Positions 9,001 to 60,975 of a stretch of DNA of 64,000 nt are shown here, piece by piece. A model generated the notes under the pieces. It was given only the letters and a program-made list of their open reading frames with translations, was not told where the DNA came from and ran no database searches. The stretch is from Omnitrophica bacterium GWA2_41_15. Lineage in GTDB: Bacteria; Omnitrophota; Gorgyraeia; Gygaellales; UBA12090. The position numbers and the translations under genes were made by a program. The stretch covers positions 5,110 through 69,109 of the forward strand of contig CAKKRH010000020.1 of NCBI GenBank assembly GCA_919902675.1. Direction: 5' to 3'. Numbering within the stretch: the first letter of the stretch is position 1; each line of letters begins with the position of its first letter.

Positions 9001-12000
9001 TGAATAAAGATGACAATGCCGACGATTACGGATCTTTAGGAAACGTGTCTTTGGCAGATACCGGTTATAATTTTTTCCCCGGACAAGAAAATGATGAAGC
9101 TGTTGACTGGGTGAGCCGCTTGTTTCTGGTTTTGCCTAAAACAGGCGCTGGTAACGACGATTATATAAATTCCGGTTCGCCTTTGTTTAAAGAAAGGGAT
9201 GCTTATAATTCCGGCAGCCCGGTCGGGTCGGTTAAAATCAAGCTTTTGCAAGATAAATACAGGAAGGCGAAAAATCTTCTTACAAATGACAGTTTTCTTA
9301 ATTCTATGGAGATTTTTGAAGGCATGCGCAATGAATTAAAACGCGCGGAAAAATACGAAAAACTCGGTTTAACCGCGATAACCTTAAAGTGTAAAGTTGA
9401 AAATGGCCTGCGGGAAATAGAGGAGAATAAAAAGATGGAGGGGCTTAAGCGGCAGGTGAAAAGAGAGCATCTTAAGAAAGAACTTAACAGGAAATGGAAA
9501 AGCCCTAAAAAGGAAGCAAGTGATGTCCGTAACGCGCGTAAACACTTGAATGCGGATGTCTCTGGTCCAGGGAGCAGCCCTGTAATTTCAAAGGGATGGC
9601 AAATTATCGCGAATCAGGAGTTTGACGGTATTCGAAAAAAGTTAGCTATGATTCGCATGGAAGAAGAAAGAATCCACCCAAGCAATTCGAAAATAATGAT
9701 TAAGGGTTTTAGGTTAGTTACGGCAAAAAGGGGTAATTTTTCGAGCAATCAACAGGAACTGCTTCTTTCTAAGAAGATAAATTCAGAATTAGTTATACGG
9801 GTAGACCCCGGAGAATTTGTATATGCTGAACTGCGTAAAGGGCAGCGCGCGGCTATTTATTCACCGGATCATAATCAATGCCAATCTTGCTCATTTACCG
9901 CCCAAAGAGGGAACGCGATTATTATTGGCCACGCGCATTTAAGGCCGTATAGGTATCGAAAGATGATGACGCCGGTATATGAACAATACCTATGGCTTCT
10001 AGATTTTATATGTAACAGCGAGAATAAATTTAAAAACGCGCAAATCGCGTTAGCGTTAGACAGCCGTATGGAAGGGATCCGGGAGAAAATTACCATAAAA
10101 GACTTTGAAAAGGAAGCCTTGAAAAGAGGAATTAAGGTTTTTCCGGTGCATACCCGGCAGGCAGAGAAGAAAGGTCAGGACCTGTTTTGTGCTACGCTTG
10201 TGCGGCGGAAAGGCGTTTATATTTCATTGTCCAGTGATGAAAATGAAGGCATAGGATATTTAAAGATACATTGGCTTCGTAGAGTAAATGAAGAAGGAAA
10301 GGCTGATTCCTTAGGCAGCAGCCCGCTATTTAGAAGGGAGATTGAAAAGACGGCAGTTGCCCGCCACGTTCCTAATCTTGAACATAATAATTTCCGCGAA
10401 GCATCTTCCGCGGTAGCAAATGATCAGGTTTTAAGGGAATTAGAGGAACGGGCAGAATATATTTTAAGTTTAGGCTCTGATATGAAGAGACTAAGCAAGA
10501 AAGAATTAAGTAAAAAAGTGGACGGTTCTATTTGTTTGAGCAGCCCGCTGGGGGAGGAAGAAAATGACCGCTGTCCATATTTTAATCATTTGGTATCTTC
10601 AGAGATAGAAGGCGCAGGCAGCCCGATAGAGGAGGAATTACGCGAATCACTCTCTAGAGTTATCAGCGGTATAAATAACCCCTCACAAGCAGGATTAAGC
10701 GCTTCCGTAGATAGTCTTTGCGAGCTCTTGTTGGATCCGCAGTTAGGCCATCCTGGGATAACCCGCTTTTTTGATTGCCTTTCCAGGGCCCTTGATATGG
10801 CGGCAATCAAAACAGATTTATCCGCTTTAAAGAATAGAATATTAAAGCTTATTACTAACACCCTGGCAGAAAGGATTAAACTCTTGCCTCGCGATTCCAA
10901 TGAATATCCGCGCTGTGCGCATATCCTCTTTTATTTGACTCTGCCGTATGTCAAAATAGCGCTCAAGATAAAAAATACAGGTTTTCTCGATAAATTAGCC
11001 GGAGAATTTTATCTTACTTTCTTAAAGTGTGTGGATAATTATGATGAGCAAAAAGGCGCGCCTTGCGTTGCCTATTATATCAGCGCGCTGGAGAAAAATA
11101 AGAAGAGGAGAAGGTTTAATGCTCCTGTTTATGTTCAAGATTCAGGGGGAGATTATGGCGCTAAAGAATATTTTTTTGAAACAGTAACCGAAGAAAAGAG
11201 TAAAAATGAATACATTAGCCAACTCCGCCAGGGAAAGGAGATGGTTATTGACCAGGAAGAAATTAACATCCTGTCAGACGAGCTGTGGGGAAAAATCAAG
11301 GAAGGGATAAGAATTTTCTTGGATTTAGGGGAAGAAAGGGTGCCTTGTTTTGATATAAGCTTATTAGAAGATTGTTATAAAGTAATCAATGAATTCCGCA
11401 CCAAGAATAGAAAGTTTGATTGGGAGCTGATAATAGAAAAATTGGCTAAAACTAATATTCAAATAGCCAGACAGAGGGATTTTCTGAAACATAAAGTTTT
11501 TAAGGGTATAGAGTATCAATATGATGGGATAAATAATCAAATGACCATCCGCTTTACTAAAGACGGAAAGGATTATATACAGACTATAGATTTATATGAC
11601 GGAAATCATAGTAATAATCAGAATGGCGGCGAATATTTATGCGGCAGTAATGTAAAAATTGGAAACGCAGGCAGTCCGCTTGATGAAAAGGAATCTTTCC
11701 CATTTCACAGGGCATTTTCTTTGGTCAGACAAGCCTTCCGGCATTCGGCGGGATATTTTAAGCCTAAAGGAGGCGGGAATGAAGCGGACCGCAGTTTTCC
11801 CTCTCCGGAGGATATTAAAGCAAAACAAGGGGAAGAATGGGGGTTGTTAGAGGAGAGTATCAAAATACTGACGCCGGAAAATCAAACTAAAATTGCAGAG
11901 CTCTTGCCGATTATCCGCGAAATTGACTCTCTGGAAGAGGGCTTGAGCCGGATTTCCGATAATGAGCTTAAAAATAAAACAAATGAATTTAAATCACGGT

Positions 12001-14681: not shown

Positions 14682-15056
14682 GTGATGAAAATGGAAAGAT
14701 TATTTGAACGCAGGGTATTCGCGAGGATTAACGCGGATTTCAGCGGATGGTACGCGTTAAAAGATGAAGGCGGCCAGATTCAGGGTGAGTTCTGGGGGTT
14801 TGATTTTAGCGGAAGCGGAGTCAGGATCCATTCTGTTAAAGAGATTGCTGAGGATAAAGTCTTAGAGGTGAGTATAGCCTCATCAACCCTAAGTCAGCCG
14901 ATACAGGAAACAGCCCGGGTGGCCTGGCAAAGGAGGATTGAGCCCGGTTTGTGGCAGGCAGGATTAAAGTTTTACCAGCCCAGGCTGATGCATTTCTGGC
15001 CGCTGGTAGAGTTAAAACAACACGAAATAGGGCAGTCAGGCGAAAGCGCGGGTTAA
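14682..15056 (+). CDS. PilZ domain protein (c-di-GMP receptor family)
   Basis: RxxxR 'RVFAR' plus DxSxxG 'DFSGSG'. RBS 'gaaggggg' upstream; ATG at 14685 is an alternative start. Confidence 0.75.
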   Translation: MMKMERLFERRVFARINADFSGWYALKDEGGQIQGEFWGFDFSGSGVRIHSVKEIAEDKVLEVSIASSTLSQPIQETARVAWQRRIEPGLWQAGLKFYQPRLMHFWPLVELKQHEIGQSGESAG

Positions 15057-15122
15057 TGACCAATGCCCAAATAAATGTTTTACGCTTACGCCTTTGAATT
15101 TTAACACAAGAGGGGGTGCCAG

Positions 15123-15509
15123 ATGAGAATTGAAGAAAACAGAAAGTTCGCGCGTTGGAATATCAGTCGTCCGGTACGCTTTAGCCTGGCGGGTAAAGAT
15201 AATGAGGAGGAGAAGATGGCCCTGCTTAAGGATATCAGCTTCGCCGGGGCCCGGATGTCTCTCTTTGAAAGTCTGCGCCTGAATGATAAGCTGGATATGT
15301 TTTTGGAGATTCCGGATGAAGAACACGCCATACACTGCGAAGGAAAAGTAGTTTGGCAAAAGTCGCTTGAGGACATGAATTCGCCGCCATTTGCCTGCGG
15401 CTTGTCTTTTACCAGGATAAAAGACCAGGATAAGGAAAAGATGTTCAAATATATGAGTCAGAACGCCACTGATGAAGTAAAGAAAAAATGGTGGGAGGGG
15501 GTAAAATAA
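15123..15509 (+). CDS. PilZ domain protein (c-di-GMP receptor family)
   Basis: RxxxR 'RKFAR' plus DxSxxG 'DISFAG'. RBS 'agaggggg' upstream. Confidence 0.75.
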   Translation: MRIEENRKFARWNISRPVRFSLAGKDNEEEKMALLKDISFAGARMSLFESLRLNDKLDMFLEIPDEEHAIHCEGKVVWQKSLEDMNSPPFACGLSFTRIKDQDKEKMFKYMSQNATDEVKKKWWEGVK

Positions 15510-15659
15510 GGCAGTTTTCCCGGCTTCGCGGCAAGCTTCTTGCGTAATATGTAATAATTATTAAGTTAAGGCGGAATCTCGCGCGCTACGCTAAATTTAC
15601 CAGGAAAACTTCGGTTCTTTTCAATTATTAAAAACCCGGGAGAGAACTTAAAAATTAAG

Positions 15660-15688
15660 TTGACGAAGCGCCGGAATTATGGTAAATT
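15660..15688 (+). promoter_or_regulatory. Sigma70-like promoter for the sugar ABC operon
   Basis: TTGACG, 17 nt, TAAATT, with TGg immediately upstream of the -10 (extended -10). Confidence 0.45.
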
Positions 15689-15810
15689 TTAATAACATTC
15701 TTTGCTATGTTATGAATAGCGACACAAGGTAATTATTTAGCTGTGTATTAAAATGATTTATAAAGTATAAAATAACAGCTTACTAAAAGAAAGAGGAGCT
15801 TCAGGATATA

Positions 15811-17142
15811 ATGGAAACAACATCTAACATAAGTAAGGGATTAAAAGGTTATTCAGGGTTAGTCTTATTTTTAATTTTCTCTTTTATGTTCTTTGGGTGC
15901 GCTCAGAAAAAAGAAGAATCTTTGACCGGAAAAACAGTTACTATCTGGCACTGGATGACTGACAGGGACCAGACCTTTCAGGAATTAGCCATGAGATATG
16001 AAGAGAAAACCGGAGTCAGAGTTGATTTCGAACTTTACGCCCCTTCGGATGCCTATTCCCAGAAGGTACGGGCCGCGGCCCAGGGTGAGAATCTTCCTGA
16101 TATTTTTGGCCTCCTGGCTGAGAAGCGGGATTTCGCCTCTTTTGTTAAGGCCGGTTATGTCAGCAATCTGACCGTCAATATGAAGGAAAATAACGCTGAA
16201 TGGGAAAAGAAATTCTTTCCCAAGGCCCTGGCAGTGAATGAATTCATAGACGGGAATTCATACAGCGTCCCAGCCGGGATATATGGAGTGCCTGTAGATG
16301 TAATGACCATAACCATGCTGTATAATAAAACCTTGTTTAAGGAATTGGGTTTAGACCCCAAGAAGCCGCCGGTTACCTGGAATGATTTTCTGGCTGTGGG
16401 AGAGAAAATAAAAGAGGCCAAGAAACAGGGCTTAGTCAGCGGCTGGGGTGAGATATGGATGATTGATTGTCTGGCCAGTAACTTCGCTTTTAATATTATG
16501 GGAAAAGATAAATTCTTAGCTACTCTCCGGGGGGAAGTTCCTTATACTGATCCGGACTGGATCAGGGTTTTGACTTTATTCAAGGAAATGCAGGACAGCG
16601 GCTTATTGTATAACGGTTTGGTGAGCATGGTGAACAAGACCGCGGAGCAGATTTTTGCCAACGAGAAGGCGGTTTTTGCTTTTAACGGTTCCTGGGGGGT
16701 TAACGTGTATAACGGGATGAATCCAAAATTGGATTATGGGGTGATGCTTCTTCCCAGGGTTTCGGATAAATTTCCGGTGAGCGTCTGGGGAGGGGCAGGT
16801 TCTTCCTTTATGGTTTATAATAAGTCTAAAAATAAAGATGAGGCAATTAAGTTTCTAAAGTGGCTGACTGAGAAAGAACAGCAGGTTTTCTTAGCCGTCC
16901 AGACCAAAAACCTTCCGGCCAACAAAGAGGCTATAGGTAATATTTCGCCGATAATGGCCCAATTTTCTTTAGGCCTGGAATACGCCACCCATCCTAATAC
17001 CTGGGGATTTTCCGAGTCTTCTCAGGTAACCGAGGCCTTTGATAAAGGGGTGCAGTCAATAATCATCGGGGAAAAGACGCCGGAGCAGGTAGCCGGCGAA
17101 GCGCGGAAAATAAAAGAAAGAGAATTAGCCAGGAAGAGATAA
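15811..17142 (+). CDS. ABC transporter extracellular solute-binding lipoprotein (CUT1/sugar type)
   Basis: Signal peptide with lipobox 'FMFFGC'. Length and overall composition fit family-1 sugar-binding proteins. Followed by MalF/MalG-type permeases. Confidence 0.8.
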   Translation: METTSNISKGLKGYSGLVLFLIFSFMFFGCAQKKEESLTGKTVTIWHWMTDRDQTFQELAMRYEEKTGVRVDFELYAPSDAYSQKVRAAAQGENLPDIFGLLAEKRDFASFVKAGYVSNLTVNMKENNAEWEKKFFPKALAVNEFIDGNSYSVPAGIYGVPVDVMTITMLYNKTLFKELGLDPKKPPVTWNDFLAVGEKIKEAKKQGLVSGWGEIWMIDCLASNFAFNIMGKDKFLATLRGEVPYTDPDWIRVLTLFKEMQDSGLLYNGLVSMVNKTAEQIFANEKAVFAFNGSWGVNVYNGMNPKLDYGVMLLPRVSDKFPVSVWGGAGSSFMVYNKSKNKDEAIKFLKWLTEKEQQVFLAVQTKNLPANKEAIGNISPIMAQFSLGLEYATHPNTWGFSESSQVTEAFDKGVQSIIIGEKTPEQVAGEARKIKERELARKR

Positions 17143-17186
17143 CAGGATAACGAATATTTAAAGAGCCGCCAGTAGCCAGCGAAATA

Positions 17187-18077
17187 ATGAAAATTAAGCT
17201 CAAATCCACTTTAGAGAATTACCTTTTTGTCCTGCCCGCCTTTGTTATTTTCTCTATTTTTTATATTTATCCTTTTTCTCAGGTGTTTTTTTTAGGGTTG
17301 TATGAGTGGGACGGTATTTTACCGACCAAGACCTTTGTGGGTTTAAATAATTTTAAGGATATATTTTTTTCTGACCCAATCTGGTGGAAGTCAATGCTCC
17401 AGGCCGGCTGGATTACCATAATTGCCCTGATCTTTCAGAATGTCCTGGCATTTCTTTTGGCCTGGGCCTGTGATAGAGAGATAAAACTTAAAAACTGGTA
17501 CCGGCTGATTTTCTTTCTTCCGCCTATTCTATCCGAGGTGGTGGTGGGTTTGGTCTGGCAGTGGATTTTGGAGGGCAATTATGGGCTCTTAAACAGCTGG
17601 CTGAATAATTTAGGGTTAGCCCATTTAACCAGAAATTGGCTGAACGATCCCAAAACCGCCCTTAACTGCGTGGCTATTGTGCACTGTTGGAAGGGTTTTG
17701 GCTGGGGATTTTTGATATTCCTGGCCGGCCTGCAGACCATACCCAGAGAACTTTATGAGGCGGCCAGGGTTGACGGGGCCAGTTCCTGGACAGCCTTTAG
17801 AAAGATCACTCTTCCTTTAATGGTTCCGGTGGCCATCTTAGTGGCCATTCTTACTATATTAGGCACAATGCAGGCCTTTGTTCTGATAATTTCCATGACC
17901 GGAGGCGGCCCGGCCTATCATACCCAGGTGCCGGTCTTAAGGATCCTGGCTTCAATGCGGGATTCCGGGCGTTTCGGCTATGCCTGCGCCCAGGGAATTG
18001 TCTTTGGGGTTATCTTAGTGGCTGTTTCTTTTATCCAATACCGCTTCTCCAAGAGAAGCCAGGCCCGAGGGGCGTAA
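17187..18077 (+). CDS. Sugar ABC transporter permease (MalF-like)
   Basis: Polytopic membrane protein with EAA loop 'EAARVDGASSWTAFRKITLPL'. Confidence 0.85.
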   Translation: MKIKLKSTLENYLFVLPAFVIFSIFYIYPFSQVFFLGLYEWDGILPTKTFVGLNNFKDIFFSDPIWWKSMLQAGWITIIALIFQNVLAFLLAWACDREIKLKNWYRLIFFLPPILSEVVVGLVWQWILEGNYGLLNSWLNNLGLAHLTRNWLNDPKTALNCVAIVHCWKGFGWGFLIFLAGLQTIPRELYEAARVDGASSWTAFRKITLPLMVPVAILVAILTILGTMQAFVLIISMTGGGPAYHTQVPVLRILASMRDSGRFGYACAQGIVFGVILVAVSFIQYRFSKRSQARGA

Positions 18078-18081
18078 GAAG

Positions 18082-18130
18082 CCTTCAGCTTTCAGCTGAT
18101 AGCCGAAAGCCGAAAACAGAAAGCCGAAAA
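18082..18130. repeat. Intercistronic word element built from 'ttcagc' and 'gccgaaa' words
   Basis: 'ccttcagctttcagctgatagccgaaagccgaaaacagaaagccgaaaa' fills the gap between the two permease genes. The arms are imperfectly complementary. It shares the 'ttcagc' word with 23865-23907. Confidence 0.55.
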
Positions 18131-18979
18131 ATGAAAAATCCTTTATATTATAAAACCAAGAATATCGCGGTTAATACAGTTATCCATATCTTTCTGCTTA
18201 CGATTGCGGTAAGCTGCGTCTTTCCTCTTTTATGGATGATTGGCTCAAGCCTCAAAACGCAGAGCACTATATTTTCGGATGTCTCTTTGATTCCCCGTCA
18301 GATGCATTGGGAAAATTATTATATTGCCTGGAAAGAAGGCGGATTCGGCAGGTATTTTATTAACAGCATTTTTTATACCACCGCGGTGGTTATCGGAATA
18401 ATCGTGGTCTCTTCTTTGGCGGCTTATGCCTTTTCCCGTTTTAATTTCCGTGGAAAAAATCTGATGTTTTACGCTTTTATGGCGGCAATGATGATACCTA
18501 TCCCGGGAAGCTTCGTTCCTTTATATGTCCTTTTAAATAAACTGCATTTGAGGAATACCCAGTTAGGCTATATTCTCTGTATGATAAATGTGGGACTATC
18601 CACCAGCATATTCTTGTTCAAGACTTTTTTTGACAAAATGCCCCGTGAGCTTGAGGACGCCGCCAGGATTGACGGCTGCACTAAATTCGGGATATGGTGG
18701 AATGTGGCTTTACCTTTAGCCAAGCCGGTTCTTGCGGTGGTGGTGGTTTTTAACGCTCTTAATGTCTGGAATGAGTATTTGCTGGCCCTGTTGATTTTTG
18801 ACAGCCGTTCTCTGATGCCTCTGCAGGTGGCTTTGATGACCTTTCAGGGGGAATATATTACCCGTTATCATCTTTTGATGGCCGGCCTGACCATAACCGC
18901 CATACCCATAATTATTGTCTATTGCCTGATGCAGAAATATATCGTCAAAGGCGTGACCCAGGGGGCGATTGTAGGATGA
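18131..18979 (+). CDS. Sugar ABC transporter permease (MalG-like)
   Basis: EAA loop 'EDAARIDGCTKFGIWWNVALPL'. Polytopic membrane protein. Confidence 0.85.
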   Translation: MKNPLYYKTKNIAVNTVIHIFLLTIAVSCVFPLLWMIGSSLKTQSTIFSDVSLIPRQMHWENYYIAWKEGGFGRYFINSIFYTTAVVIGIIVVSSLAAYAFSRFNFRGKNLMFYAFMAAMMIPIPGSFVPLYVLLNKLHLRNTQLGYILCMINVGLSTSIFLFKTFFDKMPRELEDAARIDGCTKFGIWWNVALPLAKPVLAVVVVFNALNVWNEYLLALLIFDSRSLMPLQVALMTFQGEYITRYHLLMAGLTITAIPIIIVYCLMQKYIVKGVTQGAIVG

Positions 18980-21291
18980 GAGCAAAAGGCAAAATTACAA
19001 GTAAAAACTTAAAAGTCGCTTACTTTTTACTTTTAAGTTTTGGTTTTACCTTTTTACTTTTTACTTTTGCCTTTGCGGATGGGGATTTATCTTCCTCTGA
19101 CCTGATCACCAAGGCTTGGGCGGCGCAGGGGGAGAAAAAATTTGAAGCGGTATTTAAGTATACTCAAGAGTGTATTGACCTCTATAAAGAGCAGGCGGAC
19201 AAGGAACATTCTACCTTAAAGGATTATCCGGCCAAAGAACAGGCTCCTTTATCTGATGTGGCAGTGGCTTATTTTATCCAAGCCGAGGCCCTGATGCGCC
19301 AGGGAAGGCTTAAAGAGGCCAGGGAAAAGTTTCAGTTTGTGTTTGAGCATTACCGTTACGCGGTGGCCTGGGATCCTTCCCGGGGAATTTATTGGAAGGT
19401 GGCCCAAGTCGCTAAAGAAAGCGTTGATAAAATCAGCGAAGAGCTTAGCGGACAAGGTAAAGAGTCCAAGGAGTCGGTTAAGCCTAAGGGGCCTAAGACT
19501 TCAATTACCCTTTATGATGCCGGGACCGAAGAGGTGGTTAACTATGAAAAATACGGCGAATTCACCAATATAGGAAGCAAAGAATATAAGTATATAATTA
19601 AAGATCAGGAGGGATTATCCCGCGCGGTCGGGGAGGGAATATATCCTAATACCACCTCAGTCAGATGGGACCCCAACTTCCAAAAGCTTAAAAAAGATAA
19701 GCGTATGGCAGGTTCGCATTGGGATTTTGTGAATTCACCGGATTTAGAAGCGGCTTTTTTAAAATGGGCCTCTTCCACCGAGCCGGAGGGGGTCCGACTT
19801 TACTATACCGGATTGATTTTAGAAAAAAGCGGCTTGTTAAAGTCCGCGATCAAGGCTTATTATTCAATCGCAGTGCATTATCCCGGGGCTATAGGCTGGA
19901 CCTATTGGCATACTCCTTGGTATGTGGGTCAGGCGGCAATTGCCAAGATAAGCTTTCTTCTCAAGCGGCATCCAGAACTGGGCTTAAGGCTGAGTGAGGC
20001 TAGGGTCCGTATTGTCAACGGCTATGATAATGACATAAGTAACGACATTATTATTACTAATCCGGGCAAGTTAGAAAAAATTTCGGTTAAAACCGCCAAT
20101 ATCTTAAGCAAGGCCAAGGATGTCTTTGGCAAGCTCGCCCGGAAGAAAGAAATTAAAAAGACTGTTGGTGAGGGTAAAGTTAAATTAGTACAGTATCAGG
20201 ATTCTTCCTGGCAGGTCTTAGTTGAGAATGAGCCTTTTGTGGTTAAGGCTCTTACCTATGCCCCGACAAAAATAGGCCAGTCGCCTGATGAAGGAACACT
20301 GGGTAATTGGATGAGAGAGGATTTCAACCACAACGGCAAAATCGACGGCCCTTACGATAGTTATTTAGAGGATAATCCTGGTAAGCCGGTCGGCGATTTT
20401 CAACTAATGAAGTATATGGGAGTAAATTCCATCCGGCTCTATCATCACCCTAAGGAAATCAATAAAGAATTGCTCCGGGATTTATACCACACCTACGGGA
20501 TAAGGGTAATGATCGGAGATTTTTTGGGAAAATACGCCCTGGGTTCAGGCGCTCCCTGGAATCCCGGCACTGACTATCGTAATCCTGAACACCAAAAAAA
20601 TATGCTGGAGTCGGTCCGGAAAATGGTTGAGGAATTTAAGGATGAGCCTTATGTTTTATTCTGGATTTTGGGAAATGAGAATGTCTATGGGGTGGCTTGT
20701 AACGCGGACAAAGACCCGGAGGGTTTTTTTCAATTTGCCAATCAGGCCGCGCTTTTAATAAAATCTTTGGATAAGGATCATCCGGTGGCCATTGCCAGCG
20801 GGGATGTCATCTACCTGGACCGTTTTGCCAAGTTTTCGCCGGATGTTGATATATTTGGCAGTAATGTCTACCGCGGAGATTATGGCTTCGGAAGCCTCTG
20901 GTATTCAGTGAAGGAGGAGGCGGATAAACCGGTTATGCTCACTGAATTCGGCTGTCCGGCTTATGCTGAAGGCCTCACTCAAGAAGAGGCGGAAGAGGCC
21001 CAGGCTAATTATCACAAGGGAGCCTGGGATGATATCCTCTGTAATATGAATGTTAACTGCGGCTCGGGAAACTCTATTGGCGGGATAGCCTTTGAGTTTA
21101 TGGATGAATGGTGGAAGGCCTATGAGCCCTCAAAGCACGATACCAAAGGTTTTTTTACCGGGCCTTTTCCTGATGGATATATGCATGAGGAGTGGCTGGG
21201 AATAGTATCTCAAGCCGACGGCAAGGACAGCCCTTTTAAGAGGCGCCCGCGCAAAAGCTATTATATGTATCAGAAGGCCTGGGAGCAGTAA
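18976..21291 (+). CDS. Secreted glycoside hydrolase, clan GH-A-like (beta/alpha)8 C-terminal half with TPR-like N-terminal half
   Basis: ATGA overlap with the permease stop (ATG 18976-18978, TGA 18977-18979). Signal peptide 'MRAKGKITSKNLKVAYFLLLSFGFTFLLFTFAFA'. 'ILGNENVYG' is a candidate NE acid/base and 'MLTEFGCPAY' a candidate nucleophile. The GH family is not assignable by eye. The track start at 18922 is less likely. Confidence 0.7.
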   Translation: MRAKGKITSKNLKVAYFLLLSFGFTFLLFTFAFADGDLSSSDLITKAWAAQGEKKFEAVFKYTQECIDLYKEQADKEHSTLKDYPAKEQAPLSDVAVAYFIQAEALMRQGRLKEAREKFQFVFEHYRYAVAWDPSRGIYWKVAQVAKESVDKISEELSGQGKESKESVKPKGPKTSITLYDAGTEEVVNYEKYGEFTNIGSKEYKYIIKDQEGLSRAVGEGIYPNTTSVRWDPNFQKLKKDKRMAGSHWDFVNSPDLEAAFLKWASSTEPEGVRLYYTGLILEKSGLLKSAIKAYYSIAVHYPGAIGWTYWHTPWYVGQAAIAKISFLLKRHPELGLRLSEARVRIVNGYDNDISNDIIITNPGKLEKISVKTANILSKAKDVFGKLARKKEIKKTVGEGKVKLVQYQDSSWQVLVENEPFVVKALTYAPTKIGQSPDEGTLGNWMREDFNHNGKIDGPYDSYLEDNPGKPVGDFQLMKYMGVNSIRLYHHPKEINKELLRDLYHTYGIRVMIGDFLGKYALGSGAPWNPGTDYRNPEHQKNMLESVRKMVEEFKDEPYVLFWILGNENVYGVACNADKDPEGFFQFANQAALLIKSLDKDHPVAIASGDVIYLDRFAKFSPDVDIFGSNVYRGDYGFGSLWYSVKEEADKPVMLTEFGCPAYAEGLTQEEAEEAQANYHKGAWDDILCNMNVNCGSGNSIGGIAFEFMDEWWKAYEPSKHDTKGFFTGPFPDGYMHEEWLGIVSQADGKDSPFKRRPRKSYYMYQKAWEQ
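18982..19076. repeat. Imperfect 95-bp word palindrome coinciding with the signal-peptide codons
   Basis: Exact core 'aaaacttaaaagt' (19004-19016) versus 'acttttaagtttt' (19029-19041). Outer 'gcaaaaggcaaaa' versus 'ttttgcctttgc'. Shares the 16-mer 'aaggcaaaagtaaaaa' with the element at 32367-32461 (here on the complementary strand). Confidence 0.75.
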
Positions 21292-21333
21292 AACAAAGCT
21301 AAGAGTTAAGAATTAAGAAAAGGAGGAAGTAAA

Positions 21334-22527
21334 ATGAATAAGAAAGTGTTGGTTGTTATGGTGGGTTTTTTGGCAGCTGCCAATCTTTGCCCGGCGGCGG
21401 AAGAGGCGGTTGTCCCCGCGGCAGTTAGTGAAAAAGAGGTTAGTCAGGTGAAAGAGGCCGTCAAGAGTTTTAAGGTTTATACCGATAGGCAGACTTCGGA
21501 TAACCACTATGCCCCTTCCGGGTGGATGGGCGATGTCGCCGATATTAAAATCAACGATCAGTCAACCGATAACCCTCACAGCGGGACAACCGCTATCCAG
21601 TTTACCTATAGTGCCAAAAAGTCTCAAGGTCAGGGTTGGGCGGGCGTATATTGGCAGAATCCGGCTAATAATTGGGGATCTAAAAAAGGCGGATTTGATT
21701 TAACCGGGATGACCAAGCTTTCCTTCTGGGCCAGAGGGCAAAAAGGGGGAGAGATAATCCAGAAAGTTAAGGTTGGGGGAATTAAGGGCGTCTATCCGGA
21801 TACCGCTGAGATAGAATCCGGCCCGATAGAGCTTACGGATAGCTGGCAGGAATATACCATTAATCTGGTTGATAAGGACCTTTCTTATATCAGCGGTGGT
21901 TTTTCCTGGGTGGCTACTGCCGACCAAAATTCGGAAGGGGCCGTATTCTTTCTGGATGATATAAAATTTGAGGCTGATGTATCGATAAAAGCGGCCAAGA
22001 AAGAAGCGCAAAAGATGCCTTTTTATGTCTTTGCCGACAGGCGTTCGGTGGGAAATCATTTTATCCCTTCCGGATGGATGGGCGATTACGGCGATATTAA
22101 GATAGATACCGGATGGAAAGATAATCCTTATATGGGAGATACCTGTGTTAAGATTACCTATAGCGGCAAGAATTCACAAGGGGCCCGCTGGGCCGGGATG
22201 TATTGGCAGAATCCTCCGAATAACTGGGGTTCTATTGACGGTGGTTATGATTTAAGCTCTGCCGGAAAGGTTACCTTTTGGGCCAGGGGCGAGAGTGGCG
22301 GCGAGAGAATTGAAGAGTTTAAGATCGGCGGGATTATGGGTGAGTTTTCAGACACGGATATCGCCTCAGTCGGCCCGGTGATTTTAACCAAAGAATGGCA
22401 GCAGTATTCCATTGATTTAAAAGGCAAAGACATTTCCTATATTAGCGGCGGTTTTTGTTGGGCTACCAACGTGGATGTAAATCCGGAAGGGGCCACATTT
22501 TATCTTGATGAAATAAAGTATGAATAA
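21334..22527 (+). CDS. Secreted protein with two tandem carbohydrate-binding-module-like domains
   Basis: Signal peptide. Two about 180-aa repeats sharing 'PSGWMGD..DIKI...DNP..G.T..(Q/K)(F/I)TYS.K.SQG..WAG(V/M)YWQNP.NNWGS..GG(F/Y)DL...K(L/V)(S/T)FWARG..GGE'. Confidence 0.6.
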   Translation: MNKKVLVVMVGFLAAANLCPAAEEAVVPAAVSEKEVSQVKEAVKSFKVYTDRQTSDNHYAPSGWMGDVADIKINDQSTDNPHSGTTAIQFTYSAKKSQGQGWAGVYWQNPANNWGSKKGGFDLTGMTKLSFWARGQKGGEIIQKVKVGGIKGVYPDTAEIESGPIELTDSWQEYTINLVDKDLSYISGGFSWVATADQNSEGAVFFLDDIKFEADVSIKAAKKEAQKMPFYVFADRRSVGNHFIPSGWMGDYGDIKIDTGWKDNPYMGDTCVKITYSGKNSQGARWAGMYWQNPPNNWGSIDGGYDLSSAGKVTFWARGESGGERIEEFKIGGIMGEFSDTDIASVGPVILTKEWQQYSIDLKGKDISYISGGFCWATNVDVNPEGATFYLDEIKYE

Positions 22528-23830
22528 TAAGAAATCGCTGAACTGCGCGGAACCATGCGGAATTTTCCGCGTAATTCCGCGTTCTGTTCCGCGTAGTTCA
22601 GCGATAACCCTGCTTTTTTCTTTTCTCTTTCTGACCGGAATGGCCTCCCGGCCGCTTCCGGAAGTCCGAATCCGCAAGCTGAAAAATAACGCCTACCAGT
22701 TATTAGTTAAAAATAAACCTTATTTTATCAAGGGAGTGTGTTATTCGCCTGTTCCGGTAGGCCAGGGGCATGAGTATGATTTTTGGTCTGATCCTAGCGA
22801 ACCCTGGAAGATAGACGGCAAGCTGATGCGGGAGATGGGGATAAATACCGTGCGTTTTTATCAGCTTCCGGTTAATCCGGATAGCGCTAAGAAGGTCATT
22901 AATGATTTGTATCAGCTTTATGGAATTCGCTCCATATTAGGTAATTGGCTGGGTTTCTGGGAATATCCCTGCCCAAGATACGCTGATAAAGACTTTAGGG
23001 AAAAAGTTAAAAAAGATGTGCTGGATATGGTCAGGACTTATAAAGATGAGCCAGGGGTTCTCTTGTGGATTATGGGAAACGAGAATAATTATTCATTCTC
23101 GGAGAGGATAAATTCGTGGGGTTCTCCGGAAATTGACGCGATTACCGATGTTCGAAAACGCTGTGATATCCGGGCGGGAATTTATTATAGTTTTGTTAAT
23201 GAATTAGCCAGGGAGATACATCTGATTGATTTTAATCATCCGGTGGCTTTGGGTAACGGGGAATTAATTTCCCTGGAGGCGGCTAATCAGGTTTGCCCGG
23301 ATATTGATTTGGTGGCGCTTATCGTCTATCGGGGAAAGACCTTTGGCAACCTTTTTAAGTCTTTGAGAGCGACTTTTGATAAGCCGCTTTTGATCAGCGA
23401 ATTTGGTGCCGATAGTTATGATGCTTACCTTAAGAAAGAAGACCAAAACGCGCAGGCGCTTTTCTTAGAGTCCCAATGGAGAGAAATTTTTAAACATTCA
23501 TATCCGAATAAGGAGGGGGCCCAGAATTGCTTAGGCGCGACGATGTTTGAGTGGACGGATGAATGGTGGAAGCATGATGAGGCTTCACCGGAAAGCTGGA
23601 AAATTCAGGATACCGAAAGCAACTGGTCAAACGGAAGTTATTATTTTGACATCAAAGCCGAGCGGAATATGAATATGAACGAGGAGTGGTTTGGGATCGC
23701 GGCCTTGTCCGAAGAGCTGGAAAATGGAGTAAATAAAAGGGTTTTGCGCAAGGCATATTATGTCTTGCGGGAATTTTGGAAAAATCCGGTTTTAAATCAT
23801 AAAGACAAAAAGAGGGTTAAGCCCAAATGA
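22520..23830 (+). CDS. Glycoside hydrolase, clan GH-A-like (paralogue of the C-terminal half of 18976-21291)
   Basis: 'IMGNENNYS', 'LISEFGADSY', 'FEWTDEWWKH', parallel to 'ILGNENVYG', 'LTEFGCPAY', 'FEFMDEWWKA'. 8-nt overlap with the upstream stop. The N-terminus is read through a GC-word palindrome, so the start is somewhat uncertain. Confidence 0.65.
   Translation: MNNKKSLNCAEPCGIFRVIPRSVPRSSAITLLFSFLFLTGMASRPLPEVRIRKLKNNAYQLLVKNKPYFIKGVCYSPVPVGQGHEYDFWSDPSEPWKIDGKLMREMGINTVRFYQLPVNPDSAKKVINDLYQLYGIRSILGNWLGFWEYPCPRYADKDFREKVKKDVLDMVRTYKDEPGVLLWIMGNENNYSFSERINSWGSPEIDAITDVRKRCDIRAGIYYSFVNELAREIHLIDFNHPVALGNGELISLEAANQVCPDIDLVALIVYRGKTFGNLFKSLRATFDKPLLISEFGADSYDAYLKKEDQNAQALFLESQWREIFKHSYPNKEGAQNCLGATMFEWTDEWWKHDEASPESWKIQDTESNWSNGSYYFDIKAERNMNMNEEWFGIAALSEELENGVNKRVLRKAYYVLREFWKNPVLNHKDKKRVKPK
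22534..22605. repeat. Nested GC-word palindrome ('cgcgtagttcagcg' family)
   Basis: 'atcgctgaactgcgcggaac' versus 'gttccgcgtagttcagcgat' (19/20 complementary), with inner 'gcggaattttccgc'. Related copies at 63078-63147 and 35914-35950. Confidence 0.75.
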
Positions 23831-25494
23831 CAAAGCAAAAGCAAAGATTGCTATTTATCTTTTTTTCAGCTTTCAGCCTTCAGCTTTCAGCCTTCAGCTT
23901 TCAGCTTGGAGCGCGAGAGCCTGACAGTGGAAGGCTTAAGCAATTAGAAGAGCAAATTTTGGCCAATCCTAAAGATAACTTAAGTTTACCAAAGTTAGAA
24001 GAGCTGAGCAGTTTATATTTGGAAGGTCATCAGTATAATCAGCTGGTGGATTTTTTACGCAAGCAGGAATTGATTGCTGTTTCTGGTTGTGAATTGCCTT
24101 TAGGCTACTATATAGGATTGTGCCGCTATCATCAATTAAGGCATTTGGAAGAAACCAAGAATTGGCAGGAGTATTTTGACCGGGGCGGCTTTTATAGAGA
24201 AGAGCTGTTTCAAGAGACCATGAAAACAGTTTCTTTATGCCTGGAATCTCCTTTGGTGATTAAAGCTCAGGTTATCAACTGGCTTGAACATAAGGCCCAA
24301 AATGACTCTTTAGGTAAAGGCGCCTTAGATAAATTGATAAGCTTACTTAACAACTATGTCCGACAAGACGCGGCAGGCCTTTCTTCTGTGGAGGGGGAAG
24401 TCTCGCCCTCTGGGTTAGATATGGAAGTAATCAAGGAAACAGCGGATATTTTACAAAGAGAAGGAGAGCCGGCTTTAGCCAGGGCCGCGTATAATCTTTA
24501 TGTCGGCCGTTTAGATGACTCTAAAACAGCTAAGGAAGAGCTGCGCTTGGCCGCCGAGAGCGCTTTAGAGAGCGGGAATATCTCTTTGGCTGAAATTATC
24601 TACGAACGTTATATCAATGGCATTAAGGGGTCTTTTTCTAAAGAAGATTTGGCTAAAGAGTTGACGGCGATTGCCGAACAATTCAGGTTTAAGGATATGG
24701 CTTATGCCGAGAAGATATCTGCTATTTTGGAAGAATCCTGCGGGACAGGCTGTTTCAGCGAGGAGCTTCAATACGCGCGGGCCTATAATTTACAGCGGTT
24801 AAGAGATTATTCTAAGGCGATACAGGAATATGAAAAGTTGGTGAAGAATTTTCCCGCGAGTCCGCGTATTGATGAGGCGGAATTTAAACTGGGCGTGCTT
24901 TATACCTATATAATATCTCAAAAGGAAGAAGGCTTAAATTATTGGCAAAAGGTTATTGAGCGCGATTCTGATTTAATCTTGGTTGTGGAAAGTTTATATC
25001 ATAAGGCCATGATCAACCAATACGCGCGATACTTTGATATGGCCATGGCGGACTACTCCAGGATTTTAGAGCGCGTTAATAACAATCCCGATTTTAAAGA
25101 ACTCACGGAGCGCGTCTACATAAGGCAAAAAGAGATTCAGGAGTCAAAACCTATGGAATATAACCTGAAGACCTTTCTTGACGTTTCTCTAAAAAAAGAG
25201 GGAATAATTGAATCTCAAGCATTAGCTCTTGATTTAATGGCTGAGCCTTTTAAGACAATTAGAGGCAGAGAGATAAAATTCAGCCTTAATCAGCCTCAGG
25301 TAATGACCGGTTGTCTAGTCCCCGCGCTTACTTATCTTTGGTCCGGAGATTTAGGCGGCATTTATCCCGTCCCCGTAACTCCGGAATTTTCCACTGCTTA
25401 TCAAACAAAAGGGGTCAAGGTTGTTAATGTGGTAGTCTTATCCGCCTTAGAGCCGGTGGGAAGCGCCTTGGAGATGGAGGATATAGATGAGTAA
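23827..25494 (+). CDS. Secreted TPR-repeat protein
   Basis: ATGA overlap with the upstream gene. Signal-like N-terminus. TPR-like segments such as 'YNLQRLRDYSKAIQEYEKLVKNFPASPRIDEAEFKLGVLY'. Confidence 0.6.
   Translation: MTKQKQRLLFIFFSAFSLQLSAFSFQLGAREPDSGRLKQLEEQILANPKDNLSLPKLEELSSLYLEGHQYNQLVDFLRKQELIAVSGCELPLGYYIGLCRYHQLRHLEETKNWQEYFDRGGFYREELFQETMKTVSLCLESPLVIKAQVINWLEHKAQNDSLGKGALDKLISLLNNYVRQDAAGLSSVEGEVSPSGLDMEVIKETADILQREGEPALARAAYNLYVGRLDDSKTAKEELRLAAESALESGNISLAEIIYERYINGIKGSFSKEDLAKELTAIAEQFRFKDMAYAEKISAILEESCGTGCFSEELQYARAYNLQRLRDYSKAIQEYEKLVKNFPASPRIDEAEFKLGVLYTYIISQKEEGLNYWQKVIERDSDLILVVESLYHKAMINQYARYFDMAMADYSRILERVNNNPDFKELTERVYIRQKEIQESKPMEYNLKTFLDVSLKKEGIIESQALALDLMAEPFKTIRGREIKFSLNQPQVMTGCLVPALTYLWSGDLGGIYPVPVTPEFSTAYQTKGVKVVNVVVLSALEPVGSALEMEDIDE
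23865..23907. repeat. Tandem 7-nt word repeat (tcagcyt x6) inside signal-peptide codons
   Basis: 'ttcagctttcagccttcagctttcagccttcagctttcagctt', translated as 'FSAFSLQLSAFSFQL'. Preceded by the A-rich word run 'caaagcaaaagcaaag' (23831-23846). Confidence 0.8.
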
Positions 25495-28400
25495 AAAACT
25501 CAAAACTCAAAACTCAAAACTCAAAATAAATATAAATGCCAAATATCAAAACTTAAATCAAATATTTTATCATTTGTCATTTGTGCTTTGTTATTATTTT
25601 GTCATCTGCGCTTTGTTATTTGTCATTAATCCTGTAACTGCTTTTGCCCAGGGCGCGATAGGCGATTATCTCTGCGAGATTGCCGAATCCTATTATCTTG
25701 ACGGCCGATATGAGGAAGCCTTGGATGAATTCAATAAGGCCCTGCTTGCCGATCCCGAGAATGTTAAGGCCAGGAAATATGTGGATAAGCTTAACGGAGA
25801 ATCTAAATGCGCGCTCAAGCTGAAAGAGGCCAAAGAAATAAAGATTAAAGAGAGCGCCTTGCCTGCCGGCAGACAAGGCAGGCAGGATTTTAACTTTTCT
25901 TCCCCGGAAGAAAAAGCCTACCCTTTTGAGCTATCCATTCCTTCTTCGGAAGAATCCCCCGCCCTTGGCGGGACAAGAGGGGCAGATTTACCTGTAGCAG
26001 AGGAGCCGGCCGCAATCCTTCCCCTTAAAAAAGAGAGCCTTGGCAAAAAGAAAGCCGCGGCTTTAACCGGTTCTCGTGAAGGCGCGCCAGAAGAATCCGT
26101 CTTAGCCAAAACCGGGCCAAAAAGAATAGAATCTAAAGCAAGTCCCGAACCAAAGGTTATTTCTGAAAGAAAACATACTGTTAAGTCGATTATTCCGGAA
26201 GAAACCAGGCCCAGGAAATTAATTGCCAGGAACGAGGCGGAAAAGAGAAAAATTATTTCCTCGACTTTGAATGATTATATAAAAGAGGAGAGGCTTAAAA
26301 AAGGCGAGGTCAGTCCGGTTGAGCTCTCCGGAGAATACCAGGTTTCCCTGGGCGCTACCTCCGAAGGCTTTGAATGGAAAAGGGCCAACGGAAATCTTAA
26401 TGAAAGGGATTATCATATTTTGTCGGACGCGGCCTTAAATAATCGCGAAAATACCTTTGACCACCGGGTATTCAGCCGTTTCCGGACCAACCTGGATGCT
26501 AAGAGTGATTACGGCCTGAGTTTCCATACCAATATTACGGTTGACCCTTGGAGCTTTACCGGTAAGACCGATAAGTTCACCCTTAGAAGCGCCTCCGGAA
26601 CGGACAGCGCCGAAATTGAGTTGAAATATTGGTCGGCTACCGGACGGATTTTTAACGAGACTTTTTACACCAAAAACTTAGGAGACTCTTTTGCCATTCC
26701 GGAAATCAAGGTCGAGGACGATATGACTTCGGCCCTGGCCCAGAAGACAACCTTTGGTGGGACTTTCAATATCCCTTCAAAGAAAATTCATCGCGAGTTC
26801 CAGCCTGTAAGGGAATTATGGTTTGATTACGCCATGGATGATGCTAAGCTCAGGGTTTTCCCTATGGCTTTAAGCGATCAGGCCCTAACCAGCGATGACC
26901 CTTTAGGGCTTTCTAACCACCATATTTACTGGGAGGAAAGCCCTTGGATTCTAAAATGGGAGCCGGGTCATTTTAACAGCGGTGCCGGAGCCAGCGATTT
27001 TAGCTTAGGAAAATGGAGCGATTCTTTGGCTTTTTCTACCCGCGACAGCGATATGGTCCGGTTGACCGCTTTAAGGGGATTGTCTTTTGACTATCAGCCA
27101 ACGGATGAAACCTCATTTAAGCTGACCGGTGCCTCCCCTAAGGGCCTCTGGCAGGAGTATAATAGTTTTGACAATTTTCCCCTGGCCGCGCGCCTTAAGC
27201 AGGGCGTAGGGGATAAGTTAACGTTGGGCACTACCTATACTTACCGTTTAGGCCTGAATGAAGACGAGAATTACGAGCGGGACGCGGTGAATTATACCTG
27301 GGGACTTGATTCCGGATACAGCCCGGTTACCGGGACCAAGATAGAAAGCCAGGTAGCGGCTTCACTTTCTAAACAGGACATATCTTCCTCTTATTCCAGT
27401 AATAAGCGGGGAATGGCCTATCATTTGGCTTTATTGGGTTCACCCGACATGGACCTTTTAGGCTTGAATTACCATTCTATCAAACCCGAAGAAACGGATT
27501 TTTCTTTCTTTAAAGGAAGGCTGCAATTTACCCATATGGGTGAAGGCTTTGACCCGGCTTTAGCCAGCTATCGGGAAACCCGTAAGGATAGATTTTGGTC
27601 CCGGCATATCCATTTTAGGAAACCCTTTGCCAGGTTTTACAGCGATACCGATTATAATGAGCCCAGTTTAAGCTGGGATGACATAGCCCCTTCTGCTATC
27701 GGCGACGGAATTGATATCGGCAGGAATGTCTTTGGTCTGCGCCTGGAGGCTTCAACTTTAGACCGTAAGCTGGATGAACTTTTTGATATTAGAAATGCGC
27801 ATAAATCTAACGGTAAATACCTGGAAAATGTAGCCCGTTCGGAAACCACCTATAAACCTACTGAGAAGCTAACCACCAAGGTTTTAGCGATTTATCACGA
27901 TATGCATCAAACCCATGCCGGGAAAGACCCTTATTTATCAGATGGAAGCGACAGAATTGTTGATAATAGCATTATCCCGGATGACAAAAACCCTTCAACG
28001 AAGACTTTTTCTTTAGGAGCGAATTATGATTTCTTTGATTGGGTGTCGGCGTATAGTATTTGGGAATATTCTAATGATATTAACGCGGCCTACGAAGCCT
28101 TTCCCCGGGGAATTTTAAACAGCGGAAGCTTTGAGACCTTCAGTGAATACGGAAAGACCTTTCGCAGGTCAACCACCTTTTTGTATAACCAATATTATTT
28201 TCCCCTGCCGCCCTATCCTTTTAATAATGCTTATAAATTCGGGATTACCCTGCGCCCGGCAAAAAAGTGGGAGATATTCTTGGATTTTACCCGCAATGAA
28301 TATGAATATGCCGGGCCAATCACTGATGACATTAACCACGCCGGAATAGAGATAGCCTACGCCTTCAGCGAAAAGCTGAAATTTTTCACCAAGTACGCCT

Positions 28401-32359: not shown

Positions 32360-32366
32360 CTAAAAA

Positions 32367-32461
32367 GGCAAAAGTAAAAATTCAAAACTACAACTCAAAA
32401 TTAAAAAAAGTTTTGTCTTTTAACTTGTGATTTTGAGTTTTGCGTTTTTACTTTTGAGTTG
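32367..32461. repeat. Imperfect 95-bp A/T word palindrome (intergenic)
   Basis: Left 'ggcaaaagtaaaaattcaaaactacaactcaaaatt'. The reverse complement of the right arm reads 'caactcaaaagtaaaaacgcaaaactcaaaatcac'. Same word set as 18982-19076. Confidence 0.7.
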
Positions 32462-52657: not shown

Positions 52658-53418
52658 AGATGAATAACACAGCTTTCAGCATAAAACAAATGCGCGCCTT
52701 TTACGGAGCAAAAGAGGTGATAAAGGGGGTGGATATTTCCATTATGCCCAATACGGTTACGGCCTTAATCGGGCCTTCCGGATGCGGCAAGAGCACCTTT
52801 ATACGCTCGCTTAACCGCATCAACGACCTGATTCCTTCTTTTCGGATCTCCGGCGATATAATGTACCGGCAGAAGGATATTTATGACAAGGAAACGGATG
52901 TGGTGGAGCTGCGCCGGCGCGTGGGCATGGTGTTCCAGAAACCTAATCCGTTCCCAAAATCCATTTACGAGAATATCGCCTATGGCTTAAGGATTCACGG
53001 CTTAAACATCAAAGACACCATAGATGAGATCGTGGAATCCAGCCTTAAAAAAGCCGCCCTCTGGGATGAGGTAAAGGATAATCTGAAACAAAACGCCCTC
53101 ACTCTTTCCGGAGGCCAGCAGCAGCGGCTCTGCATTGCCCGGACATTAGCCACCCAGCCGGAGGTTATCCTTTTTGATGAGCCATGCTCCGCGCTTGACC
53201 CGATTTCCACCGCCAAGATAGAGGAGCTCATTCATCACTTAAAACAAAATTACACTATCGTTATTGTTACCCACAATATGCAGCAGGCAGCAAGGGTTTC
53301 TGACTATTCCGGATTCTTCCTGCTGGGCGAGCTGATTGAGGTTGGCAGGACCCATGAGATATTCACCGCGCCCAAAGATAAGCGCACGGAAGAGTATATC
53401 ACGGGGAGGTTTGGATAG
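52651..53418 (+). CDS. pstB: Phosphate ABC transporter ATPase PstB (all motifs canonical)
   Basis: Walker A 'GPSGCGKST', Q-loop 'VFQKPNPFP', signature 'LSGGQQQRL', Walker B 'ILFDEP', H-loop 'VTHN'. Confidence 0.95.
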
Positions 53419-53532
53419 CAGTCTCGGGTCACCAGTCGCCAGTCTCGGGTTTCTGGTCTCGAGTCATCGGTGACCGGTGACTCGAGATTGGCGACTGAAA
53501 ACCAGCGACCGACGACCGGAGACTGGAGACTG
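53419..53532. repeat. 114-bp imperfect word palindrome filling the pstB-phoU spacer ('cagtctcgggtc' family)
   Basis: Starts at the base after the pstB stop and ends 5 nt before the phoU ATG. Centre '...ctcgagtcatcggtgac|cggtgactcgag...'. The outer ends 'cagtctcgggtc...' and '...ggagactggagactg' are imperfectly complementary. Confidence 0.75.
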
Positions 53533-53537
53533 ATAAA

Positions 53538-60837: not shown

Positions 60838-60840
60838 ATT

Positions 60841-60975
60841 AAACCCTAAATTCAAAACCCTAAATCCTAAATAAACTCAAAATTCCAAACTCGAAATCTA
60901 AAACAAACTTTTTAGTTTAAAGTTTGTGATTTTGGATTTGTTTAGAGTTTAGAATTTAGTGTTTAGAGTTTATTA
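60841..60975. repeat. About 135-bp imperfect 'ctaaa/tttag' word palindrome filling the pstB3-phoU2 spacer
   Basis: Left arm is rich in 'ccctaaa', 'tcctaaa', 'ctcaaaa'. Right arm is rich in 'tttagag', 'tttagaa', 'tttggat'. Centre 'caaactt...aagtttg'. Confidence 0.6.

Follow-up and report, generated by a model that had tools for sequence, protein, structure and literature searches.

Tandem-word palindromes at overlapping gene starts of Omnitrophota are probably translated as signal peptides

Short palindromes dispersed at gene junctions are a feature of the repetitive extragenic palindromes (REPs) and of REPIN-RAYT systems, and REPs at cistron junctions can stabilise the upstream mRNA, as at malE-malF of E. 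coli. Here we describe palindromes at gene junctions in a stretch of 64,000 nucleotides (the window, the whole of the DNA analysed) of contig CAKKRH010000020.1 from Omnitrophica bacterium GWA2_41_15, where three elements built of tandem 7-nt words coincide with the signal-peptide codons of the genes starting at 18976, 23827 and 25487. REPs are extragenic by definition, whereas the Omnitrophota elements are often translated. We consider it likely that the three are tandem-word (mostly 7-nt) palindromic repeats, comparable to REPs or to miniature inverted-repeat transposable elements, which are dispersed in Omnitrophota and translated as signals at ATGA starts.

The Rickettsia palindromic elements, said to have been described by Ogata et al. 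in 2000, reportedly measure about 100-150 nt and occur between genes as well as in frame within genes. Like the elements studied here they are dispersed palindromes, both intergenic and translated in frame, and their copies are tolerated in permissive parts of proteins. The likeness, one of description only and with no sequence relationship expected, does not extend to their conserved family sequences, which have no tandem 7-nt words and no specific placement on signal peptides; the Omnitrophota elements are inserted at the first codons after a stop/start overlap and their product has signal-peptide anatomy. In Neisseria opa genes, CTCTT repeats occupy signal-peptide codons in long perfect tracts, and out-of-frame variation switches expression. 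There too the hydrophobic core of a signal peptide is encoded by tandem repeats of non-triplet length, but the changes seen in the Omnitrophota elements all preserve the frame, and their repeats form palindromes.

The sense/antisense hydropathic complementarity of the genetic code, reportedly set out by Blalock and Smith in 1984, explains the pairing of a hydrophilic with a hydrophobic arm. It is a property of the code and not a genetic element; the pre-adaptation of the A-first orientation belongs to the present case. PARCELs are coding DNA with dyad symmetry that has spread within and between genomes and has been co-opted into membrane-targeted proteins, as 25-residue domains in tandem within the mature protein and not as a single N-terminal export signal, and without 7-nt words (PMC2996958). 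None of the systems compared unites palindromic tandem 7-nt words with systematic placement and use as signal peptides, and full-text literature searches turned up no account of elements of this kind in Omnitrophota.

The window, from an Omnitrophota contig of groundwater origin, matches two contigs of Hainich groundwater metagenomes with 24-26 single-nucleotide polymorphisms per 22 kb, and all relatives of its sequence were Omnitrophota. The comparison DNA, 1.33 Mb in total, consisted of the window and 80 Omnitrophota loci. The three signal-peptide elements sit in one co-directional sugar-uptake/glycoside-hydrolase operon at the following positions.

18976..19077, + strand: signal-peptide coding segment of the 18976 gene, 34 codons MRAKGKITSKNLKVAYFLLLSFGFTFLLFTFAFA, then DG; the ATG overlaps the permease stop as ATGA
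18982..19076, + strand: word palindrome 1, with an A-rich left arm at 18982-19016 (GCAAAAG-type words) and a T-rich right arm at 19022-19076 (TTTTTAC/TTTTGCC words)
23825..23910, + strand: element 2, on the signal peptide of gene 23827-25494; left end AATGACAAAGCAAAAGCAAAG, then a TTTCAGC/CAGCYTT array at 23864-23907
25487..25648, + strand: element 3, the entire signal peptide of gene 25487-28639 (54 residues, AFA then QG), made up of an AAAACTC array (4.6 copies) at 25495-25526, a TTTGTCA-type right arm at 25566-25627 and the right end ATTTGTCATT

A preliminary description of this DNA had reported these three sites, and their coordinates, translations, 7-nt words, exact 13-bp repeat and stop/start overlaps were all reproduced. 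Besides the ATGA at 18976, the ATG at 23827 overlaps the upstream stop as ATGA and the ATG at 25487 overlaps the upstream gene by 8 nt; a Shine-Dalgarno-like motif lies upstream of each. Tandem Repeats Finder recovered the words TTACTTT (7 copies, 19020-19068), TTTCAGC (6.3 copies, 23864-23907), AAAACTC (4.6 copies, perfect, 25495-25526) and TTTGTCA (9 copies, 25566-25627). At site 1 the sequence AAAACTTAAAAGT at 19004-19016 is the exact 13-bp reverse complement of 19029-19041, and the flanks extend this core to 33-nt arms with a complementarity of 73-76%. When the sites were compared with synonymous recodings, the inverted-repeat score of 13 found at site 1 was reached by 0.3% of the recodings, and the scores at sites 2 and 3 were matched by 52% and 9%. 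This agrees with the original statement that only site 1 is truly palindromic and that the arms at the other two are partly complementary. The left end of element 2 (AAATGACAAAGCA...) is similar to the left terminal repeat of a dispersed family of TGACAAA words, described below, and contributes the ATGA stop/start, so the element word itself seems to be the source of the overlap. Orthologues of element 2 in L003, L018, L028, L035 and L070 begin MTK(S/P)KI.. and belong to the same family.

The periodicity of the elements distinguishes them from other DNA coding for the same peptides. Period-7 self-identity was 0.60, 0.62 and 0.60 at sites 1-3 versus 0.37, 0.35 and 0.39 for synonymous recodings drawn from window codon usage, of which none in 500 reached the native value at any site. 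Across the 1.33 Mb, period 7 leads the exact tandem arrays with 30 occurrences versus 3-4 for periods 5, 6 and 8, and in the Tandem Repeats Finder output it accounts for 288 rows versus 114 and 84. Since a 7-nt period is unobtainable from protein-level constraint, the elements originated at the nucleotide level. Word length is not always 7, as the 93%-identical orthologue P0003 of the 18976 protein (L095, ~1505-1540) carries four copies of the 8-nt words AAGGTCAC, with GTGACC-type words in the other arm.

The palindromes could alternatively be a by-product of composition: Lys codons (AAA/AAG) complement Phe/Leu codons (TTT/CTT), which would make any signal peptide hairpin-prone, as the preliminary description had argued. 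The complementarity is genuine and accounts for the A-first orientation being pre-adapted as a signal peptide. The supposed inherent tendency did not hold up among the 80 orthologues of the 18976 gene, where 57 plain signal peptides had inverted-repeat scores of 4.5-9, in line with the recoded versions of the three window sites (mean ~7). Scores of at least 10 were found in 23 of the 80, and the signals of these had a median length of 54 residues versus 31 in the rest (rho 0.69). Furthermore, some orthologues have GC-rich words whose right arm translates to the charged, non-hydrophobic peptides ADRRQATGDQ or ANRKPQTANR, the hydrophobic core lying in the loop, and in L077 and L020 the core is placed after the whole palindrome. 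Together with the 7-nt periodicity and the presence of identical elements in non-coding DNA, these observations make a purely compositional origin extremely improbable.

The three elements are supported as translated N-termini with the anatomy predicted for signal peptides. The net charge of the n-region was +5 (18976), +3 (23827) and +6 (25487), and the best 12-residue Kyte-Doolittle windows scored 2.36, 1.98 and 2.69, respectively; the value for 23827 is borderline because Gln and Ser interrupt the hydrophobic core. Small-residue cleavage-type sites occur at 18976 (AFA then D) and 25487 (AFA then Q), while the site at 23827 is ambiguous. All 80 orthologues of the 18976 gene show signal-peptide anatomy with a strongly hydrophobic core, and in most of them the start overlaps or abuts the permease stop. 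Conservation among them begins immediately behind an FA(Q/E)(D/E)-type site with the motif (K/R)PSSGELIxKAW; the AFA/D site of the 18976 product likewise precedes the conserved SS(S/G)(D/E)LIxKAW, giving predicted mature N-terminal peptides such as DGDLSSSDLITK.

The stop/start geometry had been taken as a sign of translation, and this was borne out by the overlaps, the Shine-Dalgarno-like motifs and the absence of alternative starts, as well as by the conserved mature N-terminus, the indels and an excess of open frames in the census given below. Indels among orthologous copies of one element measured 21, 6, 21 and 18 nt, all multiples of 3. If instead the starts were mis-annotated, the elements would be 5' leaders and translation would begin downstream. 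Some orthologues do have a second ATG just ahead of the h-region (e.g. L028, MSNIKTN...), and the L002 allele of gene 23827 was called from TTG 23959. At 18976, however, no in-frame ATG, GTG or TTG occurs between the element and the mature domain, and at 25487 the sole alternative start candidates fall within the h-region. The h-region, which is required for export, is itself encoded by the right arm of the element, and the openness is specific to one frame (28 cases versus 5 and 9). The probability of mis-annotated starts is next to negligible.

The elements are dispersed and multi-copy, stand in frame at genes for exported proteins, turn over and move between genes. The clearest exchange concerns element 3: the signal-peptide DNA of 25487 (25496-25647) is 90.8-91.7% identical over 145-152 nt to that of the orthologue of the 18976 gene in L003, the nearest species, whose orthologous genes are 85-94% identical to those of the window. 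The 25487 orthologue of L003 itself bears an unrelated signal peptide. An assembly chimera was ruled out as the source of this swap, as synteny is kept on both flanks and a chimera would thus require two switches within 150 nt. The left-arm words vary coherently among copies (AAAACTC, AAAATTC or AAAATCC, four copies each), which shows array turnover.

Copies of this ~150-nt TGACAAA/TTTGTCA family, with the ends AATGACAAAT...ATTTGTCATT and often flanked by T...A, were found at 12 metagenome loci in both orientations when contigs were scanned for a 24-nt core. There are at least three copies in 17 kb of L028, at least three in 17 kb of L035, and two in L085. Three exported proteins, one a lipoprotein (..ISGC) and one secretin-like, carry family members in frame; other members are non-coding, between pgk-like and tpiA-like genes and upstream of trpE-like and hldE-like genes, as read by eye from the first residues of the open reading frames. 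The preliminary description had offered, as an alternative to a structural role, that repeat elements were exapted as secretion signals; the swap in L003 and the non-coding and in-frame copies elsewhere speak for that view.

Turnover is equally evident at the focal 18976 junction. In an alignment of five close relatives, 44 of 50 columns were identical up to GGATGA and homology returned at the mature N-terminus; between the ATGA and that point lie three unrelated elements, among relatives with 88-93% protein identity. Element 1 of the window is a shortened form of the copy in P0002 and P0004, which has three additional GCAAAAG words (21 nt) and, with inverted-repeat scores of 19 and 24.5 against 13, is the better palindrome. 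Among the 25487 orthologues the left arm becomes shorter, encoding 25, 18 and then 12 residues, but the peptide of the right arm, IFYHLSF(A/V)LCYYFVICALLFVINP, is conserved. A word-indexed protein search with the 56-residue signal peptide of 25487 returned no candidates. An exhaustive HMMER search of 1.84 billion representatives gave three matches, two orthologues and one lipoprotein, a number that does not measure how many families carry the cassette; in these matches the left arm varies in length without loss of frame. Viral contigs contained no copy of the TTTGTCA family.

We then scanned the 1.33 Mb for ungapped inverted repeats (score at least 13, loop at most 60), a census centred on one operon in 80 genomes. 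It yielded 140 hairpins versus none in Markov-shuffled copies. Forty-five were palindromes of heptamer words, 1 of them gene-internal and 42 adjoining a gene start; they begin between -22 and +146 nt relative to the end of the upstream gene. In the frame of the downstream gene 28 of the 42 were free of stops, versus 5 and 9 in the other two frames. Twenty-four of these 28 open palindromes lie in N-termini with a hydrophobic core and 4 upstream of the starts of cytoplasmic proteins; none of the 28 was within the N-terminus of a cytoplasmic protein. The operon itself provides a natural control, since its junctions differ in spacing. Its genes are the following.

Operon start: solute-binding protein and two ABC permeases, the second with its ATG at 18131
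18976-21291, + strand: TPR plus GH2-like hydrolase (the glycoside hydrolase, or GH, gene)
21334: 397-residue protein without Pfam match
22520-23830, + strand: second GH-like protein; its start overlaps the end of the preceding gene
23827-25494, + strand: TPR protein
25487-28639, + strand: 1050-residue TPR protein

The family of the 21334 gene, usually preceded by a gap, has hairpins in the gap in 12 of 68 cases and in the signal peptide in 1 of 77. Families with overlapping starts bear them in the signal peptide: 23 of 80 for the GH gene and 10 of 44 for the 23827 family. Non-coding and related elements of the window are listed here.

32360..32461, + strand: intergenic word palindrome, A-rich arm first, between the stop of a lacI-type gene (32359) and ATG 32463; stops in all frames; folding z -2.8
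53416..53535, + strand: intergenic GC-rich word palindrome (GTCACCA/GTCGCCA words), from an ABC-ATPase stop (53418) to a phoU-like ATG (53538)
60838..60975, + strand: intergenic word palindrome (TAAATCC/AAACCCT paired with GTTTAGA words), from a second ABC-ATPase stop (60837) to a second phoU-like gene (60990); free energy (dG) -38.5, z -5.1
18084..18130, + strand: intergenic word element of opposite orientation, CTTCAGCTTTCAGC then three copies of AGCCGAA, just upstream of the permease-2 ATG 18131
22534..22605, + strand: GC-rich nested hairpin of a different kind, in the n-region codons of the signal peptide of gene 22520; dG -53.6 kcal/mol, z -9.3

The element at 18084-18130, between the two permease genes, has the word CAGCTTT in common with element 2 on the 23827 signal peptide. 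The hairpin at 22534-22605 is followed by a T-rich tract encoding the h-region, and orthologues at the 22520 junction have hairpins of unrelated sequence, either in the gap or in the signal peptide. BLAST of the 18976, 23827, 32360, 53416 and 22534 elements against the 80 loci gave no convincing family members, and the 60838 element gave short word matches only. The palindromes at 53416-53535 and 60838-60975 share their junction type and lie in two apparently paralogous phosphate-transport clusters.

A preference for junctions is also what would be seen if the hairpins were selected as RNA structures between cistrons, stabilising mRNA as REPs can, serving for processing or partly terminating transcription, and so fixing the ratio of upstream to downstream expression; reading as signal peptides would then be a side effect of tight gene spacing. 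This is the main rival explanation. In many genomes the same junctions carry hairpins of several unrelated sequence classes, starting directly behind the upstream stop; intergenic copies are well folded (z -2.8 and -5.1), and AT-rich copies mostly have the A-arm first along transcription. Against this, only 23 of 80 orthologues have a hairpin at the GH junction, and intergenic copies with the T-arm first occur in L086, L090 and at 18084-18130 of the window. The coding copies decay asymmetrically, one arm losing 21 nt or nearly vanishing while the arm for the h-region is kept, and the minimum free energy at the three sites is unexceptional. We therefore judge this explanation unlikely for the three elements, although junction hairpins in general may have a weaker RNA-level role in stability or attenuation.

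A more specific RNA function had been suggested in the preliminary description, namely that the downstream start is masked by the hairpin until a ribosome arriving from the upstream gene unwinds it, which would enforce coupling, to be checked by folding the RNA around each start. All three starts overlap the upstream stop, and at site 1 the minimum-free-energy fold pairs the AGGGGG Shine-Dalgarno-like motif with the 3' end of the element. Compared with dinucleotide shuffles, folding z scores were -2.1, -1.2 and -2.4 for sites 1-3. Compared with synonymous recodings, the minimum free energy was not lower (z -0.2, -1.0 and -0.4); structure in the native RNA thus does not exceed that of other RNAs encoding the same peptide. 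In P0002 and P0004 the Shine-Dalgarno motif and the AUG lie outside the element hairpin, and changes without compensation interrupt the 13-bp core of P0002. The 57 orthologues scoring below 10 lack an inverted repeat, though most orthologues share the start/stop overlap or abutment. Moreover, a ribosome terminating at the stop would open no more than the base of the hairpin, which is located downstream of that codon. The left arm shrinks and the core decays without compensation while the right-arm peptide is kept, which places the constraint on the peptide, mainly its h-region, and not on structure. The coupling hairpin was thus not upheld and we regard it as very unlikely. No Rfam 15 family matched anywhere in the window at the gathering threshold, and in a consensus scan of 15000-34000 terminator and promoter counts equalled those of shuffles, with none at the elements.

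The repeats also invite comparison with contingency loci, in which slipped-strand changes in the number of 7-nt words would shift the frame and switch export on and off, as for CTCTT in Neisseria opa. The elements are non-triplet tandem words in the 5' coding region of exported proteins, and their copy number differs between relatives. One population variant is relevant here: in L002 (position 14933) a G-to-T change at window position 23908 converts GGA to TGA at codon 28 of gene 23827 and completes another CAGCTTT word, with the result that the gene caller starts the gene at TTG 23959 and the signal peptide is lost. In this single case array homogenisation conflicts with the reading frame. 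On the other side, array copy numbers are identical in the window, L001 and L002, three assemblies of one population. Every copy-number difference seen kept the frame (21, 6, 21 and 18 nt), and the arrays are short (2-6 units) and mostly imperfect. Switching of this kind is, in our judgement, no more credible than the coupling hairpin.

A candidate mobilising enzyme is encoded in the window. The gene at 37315-38019 is a RAYT-like Y1 transposase (NF047646, 71.4 bits with a cut-off of 80; Pfam Y1_Tnp, 59.8 bits), and 7 nt upstream of it lies a perfect REPIN-like palindrome (37237-37308) with 27-nt arms TAAAAAATAGGGACACATCCCATTTTT, of which a second copy occurs at 48143-48208 after a histidine-kinase gene. 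This palindrome is of a different sequence class (GGGAC...GTCCC) from the heptamer elements. Junctions in other Omnitrophota loci often carry a related family, AAAAATAGAACCGTCCCC..GGGGACGGTTCTATTTTT, and in L029 (9888-9960) a palindrome of the GGGAC...GTCCC class is read in frame in the n-region of a signal peptide.

Several points weigh against the elements being mobile repeats read as signals. No RAYT or insertion-sequence transposase with matching ends was linked to the heptamer elements, and no target-site duplication or empty site was tied to them. BLAST against the 80 loci detected no relatives of the focal 18976 element beyond its orthologues; that it belongs to the mobile class is suggested by analogy with the 25487 family. 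Actual export and cleavage of the predicted signals are presumed from anatomy and orthology. As the census was centred on one operon, its junctions are not fully independent, and recurrence at particular junctions is equally expected of a selected junction hairpin. AT-rich copies mostly have the A-arm first even in gaps, by about 11 to 4 in a hand tally, which is not significant; a genuine bias of this kind would hint at constraint at the RNA level. How the elements are mobilised is likewise a matter of presumption, and their copies may be either tolerated or positively selected.

Some further repeats of the window were seen beside the elements. At 57639-57670 an A-rich array with a 7/14-nt period, AAAGGAAAAAGGCA, encodes MVENKGKSQKEKGKSQVK, an extension at the N-terminus of a cytoplasmic, ABC-ATPase-like protein, whose start codon overlaps the gene before it. 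The array corresponds to half an element, with no T-rich arm, and is apparently tolerated on this non-exported protein. Inside gene 25487, the palindrome GCCTTGCCTGCCGGCAGACAAGGC at 25856-25879 is translated as ..LPAGRQGRQ... Elsewhere this CCTGCC..GGCAGG palindrome is nested in A-rich arms and read as IPACRQAGK or IPAWTAGRQ (P0033, P0042, L035, L083), and L085 and L089 carry a nested CCGCC..GGCGG palindrome in its place. A giant open reading frame at 42-14612 runs off the window start (4856 residues in the window, 6572 in the public contig) and is followed by two PilZ-domain genes. Giant proteins are a known trait of Omnitrophota.

Taking the elements as palindromic repeats translated as signals, the following mechanism can be proposed. 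Elements build up at gene junctions directly after the upstream stop codon. At a gapped junction the element occupies the gap and contains stops. If an exported protein is encoded by a downstream gene whose ATG overlaps the stop before it (ATGA), the element comes to lie just past the start codon, stop-free and in frame, and would be translated. Codons with A in second position specify polar or basic residues and those with T hydrophobic ones, so the A-rich arm would yield an n-region rich in Lys, Asn, Gln and Ser. The T-rich arm or a T-rich loop would supply an h-region rich in Phe, Leu, Ile, Val and Cys, followed by an ordinary AxA signal-peptidase site. An element might lengthen a pre-existing signal peptide or itself serve as one. 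These segments turn over fast: the number of words changes, unrelated elements take their place, and elements pass from one gene to another. The signal thus resembles a quickly changing cassette more than it does an RNA switch. Of the interpretation originally put forward, translated signals and exapted repeats stood, and the coupling hairpin and the inherent palindromicity of signals did not.

We tentatively raise the further possibility, which we consider doubtful, that Omnitrophota carry self-contained mobile signal-peptide cassettes, in which the TGA that ends the upstream gene, the ATG, the basic n-region and the hydrophobic h-region are all parts of one element. If this were true, one insertion or exchange would be enough to give a gene a new export signal or to extend or replace an existing one, and repeat mobility would be a routine source of interchangeable secretion signals across the phylum. 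It would also account for the hypervariable and oddly long signal peptides of these bacteria.

The findings also matter for annotation. N-termini of Omnitrophota and related metagenomic proteins are long, of low complexity and unrelated between orthologues, and start callers, signal predictors and clustering will mishandle them unless the elements are recognised. The elements further form a natural library of dissimilar sequences that presumably all work as signal peptides on one mature protein. If confirmed, they would show how, across a phylum, selfish or repeat DNA can be read as a signal for protein targeting, with signal peptides arising, lengthening and being swapped between genes through events at the DNA level and not by point mutation.

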